Shown: positions 43,290 to 48,970 of the stretch, one piece after another
Numbering within the stretch: the first letter of the stretch is position 1
How the letters are laid out: each line of letters starts with the position of its first letter
IMG/VR virus record: IMGVR_UViG_3300024346_000003
Length of the DNA stretch: 64,000 bases
Reading direction: 5' to 3' (one strand)
DNA from: a virus
Lineage: Duplodnaviria; Caudoviricetes
Notes under the pieces: generated by a model
The model's input: the letters and a program-made list of their open reading frames with translations, nothing else
Databases searched by the model: none
What the model was told of the DNA's origin: nothing
Made by a program: the position numbers and the translations under genes

Positions 43290-43607
43290 TTAACCATAAA
43301 GTTGTTTGTATCTATTTACTTGCCCTATATATCTTTCAAGTGCAGAATCAAAAGGATAAGGTACTCTTATTACATCACCATCTTTTATATTAAATTCCAA
43401 ACCACCATATTGTGGATTTGCTAACATAATTAAAAAACCATGATATGGGTTATTATAATAAGTTTGACTGACTTTGTCAAGTCTAGTTCTACTTAATTTA
43501 TAAATAATATTTTTATCAGTAGCTTCTACTGGTATCCTGATATATGGTATGGGTAATATCTTACCTTCATATCTAAACTTTTCGTATCTATCGAAATAAC
43601 TTGCCAT
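43290..43607 (-). CDS. LysM-like baseplate protein (gp53-like)
   Basis: RLDKVSQTYYNNPYHGFLIMLANP...IKDGDVIRVP. Confidence 0.8.
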   Translation of the reverse strand: MASYFDRYEKFRYEGKILPIPYIRIPVEATDKNIIYKLSRTRLDKVSQTYYNNPYHGFLIMLANPQYGGLEFNIKDGDVIRVPYPFDSALERYIGQVNRYKQLYG

Positions 43608-43627: not shown

Positions 43628-46600
43628 TTATGTACAACCAGAGATTGGACAATTCACAAGTACACCTTTATCGTTATAAACTGAAATAGTACTTTTACCA
43701 GTTCCATTTGGCCAACAATTACAACAAGGGTCTTTTAAGATATAACCCCACTCCTCATAATCTAACATATCCGCATATTTAATATCTTCCTCTGGACAAT
43801 CAAATTGTGCAATCGCTTTAGATTTATAATATTTATAATCTGGATATGCCAAAACTGAAACAATAAATAAAACACCACCATTTTTTACATCAGCTAATTC
43901 ACCTAAAGCTGATTTCCAACCACCTTTTTCACTAATAAATTCACCCATATTTGGTAAGTCAGGGTGTGAACTAGAGTTTATTGTAAATGTTGCAATATCA
44001 ATATTACCACCCGTTGAACTAAATAACCTAAGTTTAGCTTGATAGTCTTTAGATAAACCATTAACAACCCCAAATCTACCTTTTAATTTATCACCATCAT
44101 AATTAATATTAAATGCATAAGTATTAGTAAACTCAGCATTACTAAATACCGCTTGGTCTGGGTCAGTTGGTACTGGTGGTGCTGTTGGTGGTACTGGAAC
44201 CGTTGTTGCAGTAGTAGCTGTTAAGCTAGTTAATGGTTGATTACCAGCATTTGCATTATTATTTTGAGCAAGTTGATTCGCAGTTGGTGTTATATTTGGA
44301 CTCATCTGCGCTTCTGTTAAATTATTTTTGAAAGCAGAAATACTATCTTCACCATTAACAATACTTCCCTTGTCATCTTTAACTACAATAGTATCAGCTC
44401 TTGGGTCATATACTTCAGTATTTGCAAAGTAATTAAATGATACAGCATTTTGTAATTTATTAATTGGTCCAGTAAGACTTGAACCACCAATAAATGCAAA
44501 TGACATATCTACATTACAAATCATTGGTTGTACACCAACACCCTCTGGGTTTAAATCCCAAACCAATGGGTCAAATGTGAAATTTAAATTTTCAATTATA
44601 ATCTTAGTATGGTAAAAATCACCAATTCTTAATATACATACTGGTGGTCTACCAAATGCTAAATTACTTGGGTTATTTGTAGTACCAGCACCTTGAGTTG
44701 GCCCTTGTCTCATACATTGTTGTAAGAATGTTAATCTAGAATTAAAACCTTCTGGCGTTGTTGAGTGAAACGCTGGTTGGAAAAATTTAATTTTAGTTTT
44801 TAAAGTATCATATACCGTTGGGTCTGAAAGTTCTAATTTCTGAAAATAATCACATTCTGTATAAAATCTAGATGGACTTATTTTAGGTAATAAAACTTTA
44901 GGTGGTGGTACTGTTTCCTTTTCTGTTTTTGGTTTATCTTCAGTATTTAAATTAGGGTCAATAACAAATTTAACCGTAACGTATCTATTAATCTTACAAC
45001 CATAAACATCATTTACAGATTTTAAATAATTTCTTTTTCTTGATGCTGGTGATTCTGGACATGAACTAGTACCATCACCACCTTTATTAGTTGCACCACC
45101 AACTACTGCTGCAACTGTTACTCTTTCTGAAAATGGTGGGTCTGTTAATATATTTGTTAATAACCAATCTTTAACACTATTTGCCCTAAGTTCTGATAAT
45201 TTATCATTTCTATTATCACCAAAAGTACCAACAACACTAGCAAAACCTTCAACTACTACTTTACAATTTTTACATTTTGTAAGTAAATAATTTTGTAAAT
45301 CAATTTTATATTGTGGGTCTCTCCAACCTAAATATTTTTTATCAGCAAGTCTAGTTCCAGTATAATCAACTGTTGTCCCCGTACCATTTAAACCAAAATC
45401 AGTTCTATCTGGTTCATCTCTACCGTCAGTACCCTGGTAAACATTAGGTGTGTCTCCGCATTGGACTGATGACCATGTTTTTTTACCCTCAACTAAAAAT
45501 TGATAGCATGATTCGTTATATCTATCTATACCTTCACCTTTACCCGTAATATTTTTACTATAATCAATTCTACAAACACCATAATTTTTTGTTGCATCCC
45601 ATATTTTAGCGGTATCATCAAATGATGCAGTTACAATTTTAGTATTATCTGGGCTGAATTCAGCTGTTAAAACCCAATCAGTATGTCCAGCTAATGTTGA
45701 TAATAAAGCACCATTTGATACATCCCATATTTTACCTGTATTATCAGATGATGCAGTTACAATTTTAGTTCCATCTGGACTAAAGTTAGCGTCATTAATC
45801 GCATCAGTATGTTCGTCTAATGTAAATAATAAACCACCGTTTGATACATTCCATATTTTAGATGTGTTATCTGGGGATGTGGCGGCAGTTACAATTTTAG
45901 TTCCGTCTGGACTAAATCTAGCAGCATTAAGAAACTGAGTGTGGCCACTTAAATTAAATATTAAAGCACCAGTTGCTGTATCCCATATTTTAGCTGTACC
46001 TTCATATGATGCGGTAACTACTTTAGTTCCATCTGGGCTGAATTCAGAACTTAGTATTCCATCAGTATGGCCACTTAAGATATGTATTAAAGTACCAGAT
46101 GCTACATCCCATATTCTAGCTGTAGTATCATTTGATGAAGTTATAATTTTAGTTCCATTTGGATTAAATTTAGCATCGTAAACGGTATTAGTATGTCCAC
46201 TTAAATTAAATATTAGAGTACCATTGATTGCGTTCCATATTTTAGCGGTATCATCATATGATGCTGTTACCACTTTAGTTCCATCTGGGCTGAATTCAGC
46301 ATAACTAACAGAATTAGTGTGTCCTAATGTAAATAATGAACTACCATTTGATACATCCCATATTCTAGCGGTATCATCATATGATGCTGTTACCACTTTA
46401 GTACCATCTGAACTAAATTTAGCAGTAATGAGAGAATTAGTATGTCCAGCTAATATATATATAGTATCACCAGATGTTGCATCCCATATTCTAGCTGTAT
46501 TATCATATGATGCTGTAACTACTTTAGTTCCATCTGGACTAAATTCAGCATAATGAACACTATCAGTATGACCTTTTAATGTTTCTAATGCATTATCAAC

Positions 46601-48970
46601 ATCACACACACCATCTTCATATTTTGGATATTTATCAATTTCAAAAACATCATTTGGAAAATAAACATTAAATGATGGTGGCGCTAATTGTTCAAGTAAT
46701 GTTTCTTCTGGTTTTGTTTGAGCATTTGCAGTTTCAGTTTTATCACTCTCATTTTTTGTAAGAATTTGTTTTGCTTCTTCCAATGGAATACAACCAGCAA
46801 AAAATGATGCAACATAATCATCAAAATTTGTAGGGTTTATACCTTCAGCACCACCAATAAAATTAAGGTAATTCGGATGGTCAATAATTATTTTCCAACT
46901 TAAATTACCAGTTCTTTCAGTATTATTATAAGTATACATCGGTTCCCCTCTACCTATAAAATTATGTTTATCCCAACTTGCTGATGTTGATTCACTGAAG
47001 CTAATATCATATGGTGGGAACCACATTATTCTACCTTTATGACCACTTAATTGGTCACCAGGACCAATTTCACATGCTAATAAATTAGGTAAATTATCAT
47101 TCCAGGCTAAATTCTCAATTGAGAACATATATCTTTTATTGTCAGTATATTTTTTTGACATATCATCAGTCTTATATGGTGCTATTCTAGCAAAACCATT
47201 ATCTTCTAAAACTGATAATTCAACATTTTTTCTAAATATATTACGATTTGAACCATATAACCCTCTATTCTTTTGTAAATCTAAAACATCATCATATCTA
47301 TCGTATGTTGTCCATGTTCTACAAAATACTTTGGCTGGGTCATCGTTAACACCTTTAATTAAAGCATTATATGATAATACACCACTACCTTTTGAAACAA
47401 AACGACCAACACTAGATACGGCAGTTTGTATTTGAGATTCAGAATCATCTTTAACACCATGACCTGTTACAAGTGTTTGCATTCTATTTGTTTCAAATAA
47501 TTTTCTTGTTTTATATAAAAGTGTTTTTTTATTGTTGAATAATGTTTCTTGATTGAAATCTTTAACACTATCTGGTGTGTTGTTATACTCATCAGTCCAA
47601 CCAAAAGCATCTTTATATTTTTTAATTGTTGTTCCAGCTCTATTTAATTCAGCATCAGACTCTGAAACTGGTAAATCATAACTAGCATAAAAACCTCTAT
47701 AGTCTTCAGCCCAACCATCACCTATAATTTGTCCAGGTCTATCATAGTTACCTGATGATATTGGGCTATTTTCCTTTCCGTTTAAGAAATCTATAATACC
47801 ACCATCACCATCACCTCTTGCATATAAATTATAATTTACACCATCACCAGTATTATCACCCTTTTTAATTCTATCATCTTCGTATCCAGCCGCATATCCC
47901 TGTCTTAATGTTGTTCCATTTGGATTAGAGATAATCATATTAGCTCTCATATGATTAATTAAAGTTTGAACTTGACCCACACCAGAATTTTTAAGCATTT
48001 CATTTGCTCGTTTAATATTTGGTTGACCAATATAATCTAATTTATTACTAAATGAATAAATACTTGAAGATTCTTCTAATAAACTTTTTGGTGATTGAAC
48101 ACCAAGTATATTTGCTGCAAAGTTAAGGATTCTACCAACGGTACCTTTAGGTACTGTAATACTATAATTTAAATTAACTAAACTTTTACCTTGAAGTAAT
48201 GATAATGGATTTAAATTTAAACTACCTAATGTTTCTTGTTGTAAACCAAATGCTGCATTATAACCAACATGTGCTAATAATTGTTGACCACCTATATTAC
48301 CTAAAGGTGTATCATTTATAGTTCCAGTAGCACCTAATACTCTACCTAGTAAAGTTGACCTAATATCTTCATTAGCAACCAAACCACCTGTTGAATTAAA
48401 ACCAACTCCTTGACCACCTACAACACCACCGATTATATCGGCAGCTTGTGTACTAGGTCCACCTATATTTAAATTATTATTCTCATCAATATATGATTTA
48501 AGATTTTGAAAAGTTGGTACTGGTTGTGTATTTAAATCAATAACTGATTGTTTAGGTACATCAACATATATATTTTTAGATGTCATACCTTCTCTAACAT
48601 CAGAACTATTAGTTAAATTACCATTAGCTAAAAATTGACCATTTAATAATTCATTTGAATTTGAATAAAGACCTTGATTACCTATTACACTATTTGTTGA
48701 TTGATTTAATATAATATTAGTTTGAGAGTAATCATCAGTAGTACCTTGAAAAGTATTTAATATAGTATTTAATTCTTGATATATAGTACCAGTATTATCA
48801 ATACTATTTGACGGTTGAACCGCAATTGGTAACGTTTCTACTTCAACTGGATAACCAATACCACCTAATAATGATTGTAAACCATTATCAATTACAGTAT
48901 CTGTTACTAAATTCTTAAGTAATAAATAATCCCTAAAGGAAGGTGATAGTGAATTTATTGAATTTGGCAT
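43628..48970 (-). CDS. Tube-initiator-like baseplate protein with inserted OmpA-like domain and 8 WD40 repeats
   Basis: Tube-fold halves FPPYDISFSE...GRGEPMYTYNNTERTG and AFGRPPVCILRIGDFYHTKI. OmpA-like VVVEGFAS...NDKLSELRANSVKDWL. Eight GH...WD repeats. Confidence 0.75.
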   Translation of the reverse strand: MPNSINSLSPSFRDYLLLKNLVTDTVIDNGLQSLLGGIGYPVEVETLPIAVQPSNSIDNTGTIYQELNTILNTFQGTTDDYSQTNIILNQSTNSVIGNQGLYSNSNELLNGQFLANGNLTNSSDVREGMTSKNIYVDVPKQSVIDLNTQPVPTFQNLKSYIDENNNLNIGGPSTQAADIIGGVVGGQGVGFNSTGGLVANEDIRSTLLGRVLGATGTINDTPLGNIGGQQLLAHVGYNAAFGLQQETLGSLNLNPLSLLQGKSLVNLNYSITVPKGTVGRILNFAANILGVQSPKSLLEESSSIYSFSNKLDYIGQPNIKRANEMLKNSGVGQVQTLINHMRANMIISNPNGTTLRQGYAAGYEDDRIKKGDNTGDGVNYNLYARGDGDGGIIDFLNGKENSPISSGNYDRPGQIIGDGWAEDYRGFYASYDLPVSESDAELNRAGTTIKKYKDAFGWTDEYNNTPDSVKDFNQETLFNNKKTLLYKTRKLFETNRMQTLVTGHGVKDDSESQIQTAVSSVGRFVSKGSGVLSYNALIKGVNDDPAKVFCRTWTTYDRYDDVLDLQKNRGLYGSNRNIFRKNVELSVLEDNGFARIAPYKTDDMSKKYTDNKRYMFSIENLAWNDNLPNLLACEIGPGDQLSGHKGRIMWFPPYDISFSESTSASWDKHNFIGRGEPMYTYNNTERTGNLSWKIIIDHPNYLNFIGGAEGINPTNFDDYVASFFAGCIPLEEAKQILTKNESDKTETANAQTKPEETLLEQLAPPSFNVYFPNDVFEIDKYPKYEDGVCDVDNALETLKGHTDSVHYAEFSPDGTKVVTASYDNTARIWDATSGDTIYILAGHTNSLITAKFSSDGTKVVTASYDDTARIWDVSNGSSLFTLGHTNSVSYAEFSPDGTKVVTASYDDTAKIWNAINGTLIFNLSGHTNTVYDAKFNPNGTKIITSSNDTTARIWDVASGTLIHILSGHTDGILSSEFSPDGTKVVTASYEGTAKIWDTATGALIFNLSGHTQFLNAARFSPDGTKIVTAATSPDNTSKIWNVSNGGLLFTLDEHTDAINDANFSPDGTKIVTASSDNTGKIWDVSNGALLSTLAGHTDWVLTAEFSPDNTKIVTASFDDTAKIWDATKNYGVCRIDYSKNITGKGEGIDRYNESCYQFLVEGKKTWSSVQCGDTPNVYQGTDGRDEPDRTDFGLNGTGTTVDYTGTRLADKKYLGWRDPQYKIDLQNYLLTKCKNCKVVVEGFASVVGTFGDNRNDKLSELRANSVKDWLLTNILTDPPFSERVTVAAVVGGATNKGGDGTSSCPESPASRKRNYLKSVNDVYGCKINRYVTVKFVIDPNLNTEDKPKTEKETVPPPKVLLPKISPSRFYTECDYFQKLELSDPTVYDTLKTKIKFFQPAFHSTTPEGFNSRLTFLQQCMRQGPTQGAGTTNNPSNLAFGRPPVCILRIGDFYHTKIIIENLNFTFDPLVWDLNPEGVGVQPMICNVDMSFAFIGGSSLTGPINKLQNAVSFNYFANTEVYDPRADTIVVKDDKGSIVNGEDSISAFKNNLTEAQMSPNITPTANQLAQNNNANAGNQPLTSLTATTATTVPVPPTAPPVPTDPDQAVFSNAEFTNTYAFNINYDGDKLKGRFGVVNGLSKDYQAKLRLFSSTGGNIDIATFTINSSSHPDLPNMGEFISEKGGWKSALGELADVKNGGVLFIVSVLAYPDYKYYKSKAIAQFDCPEEDIKYADMLDYEEWGYILKDPCCNCWPNGTGKSTISVYNDKGVLVNCPISGCT
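45585..46595 (-). repeat. Eight homogeneous WD40 repeats (about 42 aa each)
   Basis: Consensus L-x-GHT-x-x-V-x-x-A-x-FSPDGTK-V-V-TAS-x-D-x-TA-K/R-IWD; similarity also visible at the DNA level. Confidence 0.95.

Follow-up and report, generated by a model that had tools for sequence, protein, structure and literature searches.

The DNA analysed here, a stretch of 64,000 nucleotides referred to as the window, belongs to the virus record IMGVR_UViG_3300024346_000003 (Duplodnaviria; Caudoviricetes), a 109-kb IMG/VR contig estimated to be 31% complete. A single minus-strand open reading frame (ORF) at 43628-48970 encodes a protein of 1,780 residues (P0001) and holds the whole of a nested architecture, which a sequence-only reading had placed at 44400-47100 (residues about 624-1523 of this ORF). 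That reading saw a tube-like fold split in two, an OmpA-like domain lodged between the halves and a WD40 propeller lodged in turn within the OmpA-like domain, and structure models and fold searches recover these five elements in that same order within the one ORF. As modelled the nest has more layers than were first listed, among them a helix-rich region, a pair of linkers modelled at low confidence and a beta-rich knob of about 85 residues. An AlphaFold model of residues 601-1540 was built with a 119-sequence alignment (mean predicted local distance difference test, pLDDT, 79.7), and a second model was made of the core of a close ortholog that lacks the propeller, P0013 (pLDDT 70.5), so that the propeller would not dominate searches. 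The layout of the gene and its product is as follows.

43628..48970 (-), whole gene, a baseplate protein between the tape-measure and gp25-like wedge genes (ORF list, translation, synteny)
47141..48970 (-), N-terminal region, residues 1-610, conserved in the family (alignment of 46 members)
46721..47128 (-), first barrel half and helices, residues about 615-750, FPPY motif at 651 (model, fold search)
46673..46720 (-), outgoing linker, residues about 751-766, charged and Pro-containing (pLDDT about 42 in both models, variable in alignment)
46646..46672 (-), OmpA-like strand beta1 (FNVYFPND), residues 767-775 (structural alignments, invariant N773 and D774)
45587..46606 (-), eight-blade WD40 propeller, residues 789-1128, bracketed by Cys789 and Cys1133 (Pfam, TRF, model)
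45326..45574 (-), Cys-containing beta-rich knob, residues about 1133-1215, about 85 residues (strands at 1149-1213 in the model, alignment)
44960..45325 (-), OmpA-like core alpha1-beta2-alpha2-beta3-beta4, residues about 1216-1337, with S1245, N1255 and R1262
44876..44959 (-), return linker, residues about 1338-1365, Lys/Pro/Glu-rich (pLDDT 43-45, variable in alignment)
44351..44875 (-), helices and second barrel half, residues about 1366-1540, GRPPVCILRIG at 1440 (model, fold search)
43631..44350 (-), C-terminal region, residues 1541-1780, with a Cys-rich tail (translation, alignment)

Fold of the nested domains

Recognition of the propeller is straightforward. Pfam WD40 (PF00400) finds eight repeats at 235.5 bits against a cut-off of 27 (E 5.8e-72), TRF finds a 126-nucleotide period in 7.8 copies at 45588-46570, and a hidden Markov model of the blade places eight units at residues 789-1125. 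The model has 32 strands making eight four-stranded blades at a pLDDT of about 98, and superposes on the eight-bladed Tako8 with TMt 0.96-0.97 and a root mean square deviation (rmsd) of 1.2-1.4 Å, and on human ODA16 with TMt 0.95. The predicted structure is thus a closed, eight-bladed propeller set in the first loop of the OmpA-like domain. Blade-to-blade identity is 48-73% in protein (mean 58%) and 64-84% in DNA, which is very high for WD40, yet the earlier description of the repeats as near-identical was overstated. A Cys stands directly before and directly after the insert in every insert-bearing ortholog that could be scored, and most insert-less relatives have neither; such conservation suggests that Cys789 and Cys1133 form a disulfide staple at the propeller stem. 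Between the propeller and helix 1 of the OmpA-like domain the alignment places the knob, which occurs in close relatives with or without a propeller, and strands equivalent to the knob strands appear in the P0013 model.

The OmpA-like assignment is solid at the level of the family. The window protein itself scores 23.1 bits with Pfam OmpA (PF00691), under the 27.2 cut-off, and 79 of 85 propeller-less orthologs match it (best E 2.3e-9; P0013 at 27.5 bits), while the family profile matches solved OmpA-like domains in a PDB profile search. With the P0013 core model, Foldseek against the PDB returns OmpA-like matches at E 2.3e-5, and VIA-align gives 3td3_A at Z 9.3 (rmsd 2.8 Å, 120 of 120 residues) and 9uu2_A at Z 9.1 (rmsd 2.4 Å). 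These structural alignments span residues about 156-400 of that model, where the beta-alpha-beta-alpha-beta-beta fold is found, and the same elements are present in the model of the window protein. They begin at residues 156-167 of the P0013 model, just ahead of the FNVYF strand, which makes this strand beta1 of the domain in structural terms and bears out the proposal that FNVYFPND opens the OmpA-like region. The HMMER local sequence alignment differs, pairing the canonical beta1 with a later segment.

Whether the domain binds peptidoglycan, as the sequence-only reading supposed, is a mixed case. The N..LS..RA motif is kept and N1255 and R1262 are invariant, these being the Asn and Arg of the Asp-Asn-Arg triad that contacts diaminopimelate (DAP), but the Asp position is occupied by an invariant Ser (S1245). 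The corresponding DAP-contacting triad in PorE is D576/N584/R591 (PMC7192894). The same GYAS variant is found in Francisella FopA1. Peptidoglycan binding seems plausible from the retained residues, and a purely structural role as a form of glue, as LysM has elsewhere, is by analogy a live alternative.

The tube fold emerged from an exhaustive VIA-align search (wide) with the P0013 model, which gave two interleaved sets of matches, one of OmpA-like domains and the other of tube-type baseplate proteins. Chains of the second set align with residues 5-13 through to 558-568 of that model, and so use both halves and skip the middle. They comprise phiCD508 9g8s_T (Z 9.6), P1 9ay5_G (Z 9.5), diffocin CD1367 8v3w_G (Z 9.3), Pvc7 9qgl_7A (Z 9.0), phi812 9euf_M, Mu gp43 9ki1_0 and A-1(L) gp18 8kea_P (Z 8.3 each) and pyocin R2 6u5b_h (Z 7.8), with ordinary tube proteins and Hcp further down the list. 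The flanks thus do appear to form OmpA and tube folds, as had been proposed, the latter at moderate scores (Z 8-9.6 for tube-initiator chains across both halves). In the model of the window protein the first barrel half has strands 647-650, 654-664 and 684-696 together with four helices, and the second has four helices followed by strands 1444-1449, 1453-1467 and 1483-1494, repeating the strand and helix pattern of the P0013 model in both. Many alignment columns are invariant in the first half, and the second is the most conserved part of the protein (99% identity and a ratio of nonsynonymous to synonymous divergence, dN/dS, of 0.04 against its closest relative, P0002). A tube fold assembled from two separated chain halves is well supported by the models but not certain.

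Other searches were less informative for this part of the protein. Foldseek against the PDB with the core model returned OmpA-like chains only, the one domain filling the list, and the tube fold surfaced only with VIA-align wide; an ESM-Atlas fold search of the core gave viral hypotheticals and OmpA and nothing further. The window protein has no tube-family match in Pfam (CIS_tube) or PHROG searches, nothing significant was found for the flanks in PHROGs, and the core profile aligned to a 286-residue neighbour by hhalign at a probability below 1%.

Distribution and divergence of the propeller

The family defined by the split tube and OmpA core is large, with 1,321 representative clusters reaching E<=1e-30 in a search of 1.84 billion representatives, and a tblastn search with both flanks gave zero matches in 50,697 deposited phage records. 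In many distant members the match to the core profile is divided into two or three stretches, with breaks at profile positions of about 185-260, and inserts near OmpA beta1-alpha1 seem from this to be common across the wider family.

Close orthologs with 72-74% core identity lack the propeller cleanly, their sequence passing from ...YENGLQNP directly to GTDPILYKDN... A census of the 119 best family matches found a repetitive WD40 propeller, with either 7 or 8 blades, in 21, a degenerate propeller at the same site in four, an insert of about 210 residues with no family match at that site in a further four and a short insert of about 85 residues in one (P0067), the remaining 89 being insert-free. 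In a tree made from the flanks only, every insert-bearing protein falls inside one subclade of 52 members, within which the WD40 state has changed at least four to five times. A single clade of propeller-bearing proteins is rejected by 271 log-likelihood units (approximately unbiased, AU, test p 1.5e-44), the group having been named after the tree was seen. The propeller is, on this sequence evidence, an accessory module that has been gained, lost or exchanged several times. An ancient and ordinary WD40 block carried by all orthologs, the case that the sequence-only reading had allowed for, is not what the ortholog alignment shows, since close orthologs lack the block cleanly and its carriers do not form one clade on the flank tree.

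The other inserts merit brief description. The degenerate beta-propellers of P0037, P0039, P0041 and P0042 have about 380-430 residues in the same loop, with weak WD40/PQQ-type Pfam matches and low internal repeat similarity, and their carriers make up one clade that is sister to two carriers of the repetitive WD40 form. The insert of about 210 residues is found in P0023, P0029, P0030 and P0052 and has no Pfam match. P0023, which has this insert, and P0020, which is insert-free, are almost identical in their flanks, and so insert turnover must be very recent there.

Region by region comparison of the window gene with P0002 (DNA taken from its contig, L001) sets the insert apart from the rest. 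The flanks have 95-100% amino acid identity with a synonymous divergence (dS) of 0.07-0.14 and dN/dS of 0.04-0.24; the propeller has 68% identity, dS 0.40 and dN/dS 0.59; the knob has 77%, 0.27 and 0.57; and the OmpA core has 81%, 0.12 and 0.96. The raised dS of the propeller is a sign that it has recombined with a more distant allele. Among propeller-bearing pairs whose tube halves are 97-100% identical the propellers are 53-94% identical (mean 65%), and in P0045 and P0046 the tube and knob are each 100% and the OmpA-like domain 97% identical whereas the WD40 regions are 55% identical, with 8 and 7 blades respectively and of visibly different sub-types. Judged by sequence, this last pair is a case of cassette replacement. 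Positional orthology of blades can be discerned between close alleles only.

A recently amplified propeller had been proposed, and for the window protein recent amplification in situ is not supported. Carriers all have 7-8 blades, the identity among its blades (58%) is not above that between blades of different orthologs (53-60%), and its composition gives no foreign signal (guanine plus cytosine content 0.33-0.355 in the propeller and 0.30-0.35 around it). The blade numbers, the blade identities and the matching composition together indicate a propeller that arrived or arose whole and has been long resident. P0033 has blades that are 62-95% identical (mean 74%), well above those of the window protein, which suggests that blades were recently duplicated or converted in that lineage.

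Variation within the blade is concentrated. Across 166 blades and 42 positions the entropy is 2.9-3.6 bits at positions 11, 15, 16, 18, 19 and 34, is about 2.3 bits at a few further positions and is mostly under about 1.8 bits elsewhere. Positions 16, 18 and 34, placed by the GH and S-x-D landmarks, are presumably the three canonical contact positions of the WD40 top face. Between the window gene and P0002, dN/dS is 1.55 at the ten most variable blade positions and 0.38 at the scaffold, with equal dS. Direct repeats within the gene are the blades only, and no RVT_1 match that would indicate a diversity-generating retroelement is present in the 109-kb record, itself an estimated 31% of its genome.

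As to origin, the closest standalone relatives of the propeller are 51-57% identical and lie on bacterial-size contigs, some with caspase-family, peptidase or kinase names or domains. The propellers of other orthologs are about as close as these bacterial WD40 proteins, the scaffold being near-consensus, and so no donor can be named. By its sequence the propeller seems to belong with the highly repetitive WD40 domains of prokaryotes. The matches in BFVD are WD40 proteins of giant viruses and some propellers of uncultured phages, and this architecture was found in none of them.

Baseplate context and proposed function

The genes around the 1,780-residue ORF are all on the same strand and together make a contractile-tail module, those of note being as follows.

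56283-59117 (-), sheath
55687-56175 (-), tube
53543-54610 (-), T4 gp26/51-like hub chaperone
49221-51821 (-), tape-measure-like protein
43290-43607 (-), gp25-like wedge subunit, 105 residues
36427-43278 (-), 2,283-residue protein with VanY peptidase and lysozyme domains

The order sheath, tube, chaperone-like protein, tape measure, the 1,780-residue gene and gp25-like protein is kept around this gene in a 92%-identical relative (L001) and also in a marine relative of about 50% identity that is without the propeller (L003). The location at the baseplate that had been suggested from the sequence is thereby upheld. The protein is also present on a 304-kb contig, which indicates a large uncultured phage. 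The 2,283-residue neighbour has its VanY-type D-Ala-D-Ala carboxypeptidase and phage lysozyme domains near the C-terminus; the L003 counterpart has 1,868 residues, is without a recorded Pfam match and has a separate Amidase_2 gene after it.

Several of the matched tube-type chains have assigned roles: Pvc7, diffocin CD1367, Mu gp43 and A-1(L) gp18 are tube initiators (PMC12546770, PMC10966104, PMC13324602, PMC11915804). Such proteins form a hexameric tube-like ring on the hub (PMC12546770, PMC10966104, PMC11915804), and in Pvc7, Mu gp43, Milano and pyocin R2 an appended LysM-like module touches the sheath initiator and wedges (PMC12546770, PMC10966104, PMC11915804). Mu gp43 consists of a tube-like domain and an eight-helix domain in which LysM is embedded (PMC11915804); about eight helices flank the OmpA insert in the model of the window protein. 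By fold similarity and gene position the gene product is probably of the tail-tube initiator class (Mu gp43, Pvc7/Afp7, T4 gp48).

With the LysM-bearing tube initiators (Mu gp43, Milano gp25, Pvc7/Afp7, the pyocin R2 glue protein, A-1(L) gp18, T4 gp48) the window protein shares a tube-type barrel, a place next to tape-measure and baseplate genes, a helix-rich region and an attached module of wall-binding type. It differs from them in that the accessory part lies inside the barrel and is not appended C-terminally, is OmpA-like and not LysM, and comes with the knob, the WD40 propeller and an additional 610 residues at the N-terminus and 240 at the C-terminus; sequence similarity to known tube initiators is not significant by Pfam, tblastn or hhalign. 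The OmpA-like part has the fold and N..LS..RA motif of OmpA_C-like domains (AbOmpA 3TD3, Pal, OprF, MotB, FopA1 6U83), from which the Asp to Ser change, the roughly 430 residues of propeller and knob between beta1 and alpha1 and the setting in a virion protein distinguish it.

The closest bacterial domain combination is PorE of the Bacteroidota type IX secretion system (TPR-WD40-CRD-OmpA_C-like), which likewise unites WD40 and OmpA_C-like domains in one chain (PMC12773672, PMC7192894), and 6TOP is among the structural matches of the P0013 core. The likeness is in domain content only, PorE being a bacterial lipoprotein with its domains in series whereas here they are nested within a phage tube protein. 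Predictions also place WD40-fold domains on contractile tail apparatus, in the diffocin receptor-binding protein (RBP) RtbM and in a second fibre of the C. difficile phages phiMMP03 and CDKM15, where recognition of S-layer protein is proposed (PMC13324602). Those are peripheral fibres or RBPs known from AlphaFold prediction only, and the window propeller is an insert in a central tube initiator. Repetitive WD40 sensors of the NLR type (Nostoc 2YMU, which matches the window propeller at 36% identity) resemble the propeller in having blades about 50-70% identical, a fixed scaffold and few hypervariable positions, and differ in being cytoplasmic and fused to effector or NTPase domains where the window propeller is part of a virion. 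HET-E-type fungal repeats are comparable highly repetitive WD40 domains. A tube initiator with a wall-binding-type module is already known; the literature search found no description of an OmpA-like domain in place of LysM, of such nesting or of a hypervariable WD40 cassette that is exchanged, and "tube initiator" and "OmpA" were not found together in one paper.

On balance we favour the reading that this is the tube initiator (Mu gp43/Pvc7 class) of a large aquatic myovirus, with OmpA in exchange for LysM, and that the variable propeller it displays binds a ligand, probably in host recognition. The conserved core would be the tube-type beta-barrel with its helix-rich region, and the OmpA-like domain would sit between the barrel halves on two flexible linkers, in the place of LysM, with the knob in its first loop and the Cys-bracketed propeller at the knob edge. 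If the barrel assembles into a hexameric ring at the tube base, each baseplate would display about six of the tethered OmpA-propeller modules. The variable face of the propeller would then bind a variable ligand, most likely a component of the host envelope, and so contribute to the specificity of adsorption or triggering, while the OmpA-like domain would hold the peptidoglycan stem peptide during penetration or serve as baseplate glue. A propeller that is dispensable, swappable and hypervariable at its face is in keeping with a ligand that itself varies, most simply one in the host envelope, and a binding role fits both the cassette replacement and the restriction of variation to a few positions per blade. 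More tentative is the suggestion that the propeller is an unrecognised kind of host-specificity determinant, a repeat domain with a consensus scaffold carried on the central tube initiator and not on fibres, which is diversified by cassette exchange and binding-face hypervariation in the manner of NLR-type sensors and was perhaps captured from the sensors of bacterial conflict systems.

A number of points weigh against the favoured reading. The placement of some six to ten variable positions on the top face is our assumption, made from the WD40 literature and not drawn from model coordinates; the variable positions used for dN/dS were picked from data that include the two genes compared, and the high dS is a mark of recombination, which itself inflates divergence. 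The tube matches reach no more than a moderate Z (<= 9.6), model confidence in the barrel is at pLDDT 55-85, sequence support for the tube is one weak CIS_tube match in one of 85 orthologs (E 0.006), and hhalign of the core profile with the phage's own tube protein gave a probability below 1%. The Ser in place of the triad Asp counts against a hold on the stem peptide. Solved baseplates bury their tube initiators centrally, and LysM there touches the sheath initiator and wedges and not the host (PMC12546770, PMC11915804), and so the two predicted linkers would decide whether the propeller is exposed. Variation of the propeller might equally well follow that of a partner within the phage.

This last point is at the heart of the main rival, which we think unlikely. 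Here the OmpA-propeller module would stay within the baseplate and cement together tube initiator, sheath initiator and wedges, as LysM does in Pvc7, Mu gp43 and T4 gp53, and the propeller would dock a phage protein (fibres or wedge extensions) with its variability tracking that protein. The accessory modules of tube initiators do contact Pvc4 and Pvc12, or wedges (PMC12546770, PMC11915804, PMC10966104), WD40 propellers are generic platforms for protein-protein interaction, and loss of the canonical peptidoglycan-binding Asp is in keeping with such a role. Against this, close relatives have another insert or no propeller, so that the propeller is not needed for assembly, and the cassette is replaced where the rest of the gene is 97-100% identical. 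The neighbour genes that flank the 1,780-residue gene are moreover of equal length in the window and in L001, and six 37-kDa propellers would be hard to place between hub and wedges.

Less probable again, and in our judgement improbable, is a periplasmic anchor, in which the module would cross the outer membrane with the tip of the tube, the OmpA-like domain would clamp peptidoglycan and the propeller would bind a periplasmic or outer-membrane host protein in mimicry of PorE or TolB-Pal. The invariance of the Asn and Arg of the DAP-binding triad favours it, as does the union of WD40 and OmpA_C-like domains in PorE (PMC12773672), and the peptidase and lysozyme domains of the next large gene indicate wall processing at the tail tip. 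The replaced Asp does not, six copies of a 1,780-residue protein would be too bulky to follow the tube through the envelope, and periplasmic targets are usually conserved, a poor fit with rapid turnover of the cassette. That the propeller is a functionless hitch-hiker in an insert-tolerant loop is very improbable, for although three or more unrelated kinds of insert occur in this loop, which may also be empty, 21 carriers keep an intact reading frame and 7-8 complete blades, the scaffold is under purifying selection (dN/dS 0.38 against 1.55 at the variable positions), a conserved Cys pair surrounds every scored insert and the propeller fold is predicted at a pLDDT of about 98.

Tube initiators are usually seen as conserved and buried assembly parts, and here one appears to scaffold an exchangeable binding module. 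If host specificity is set by the propeller under the reading we favour, then contractile phages would have a third place, besides fibres and spikes, at which host range varies, and the propeller would offer a compact and stable scaffold whose defined variable positions could serve to retarget phages or tailocins. The core of split tube and OmpA is abundant in aquatic viromes and unmatched in deposited phage records, and so marks a clade of big myoviruses that is large and unstudied. With its triple nesting and conserved Cys brackets, this protein is also a clear natural case of tolerance to domain insertion.

Terminal regions

The N-terminal region (residues 1-610) accounts for one third of the protein and has 39 invariant columns among 46 sequences. 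None of the 46 members has a Pfam match in this region and a PDB profile search with it was also empty, while an Atlas feature search returned viral hypotheticals only, at 0.79, which is chance level. At the other end of the protein the C-terminal region closes with a Cys-rich motif (CC.C...C...C) that is common to P0004 and P0009 and is replaced or absent in other orthologs, and residues 1541-1780 may be a second variable distal domain.

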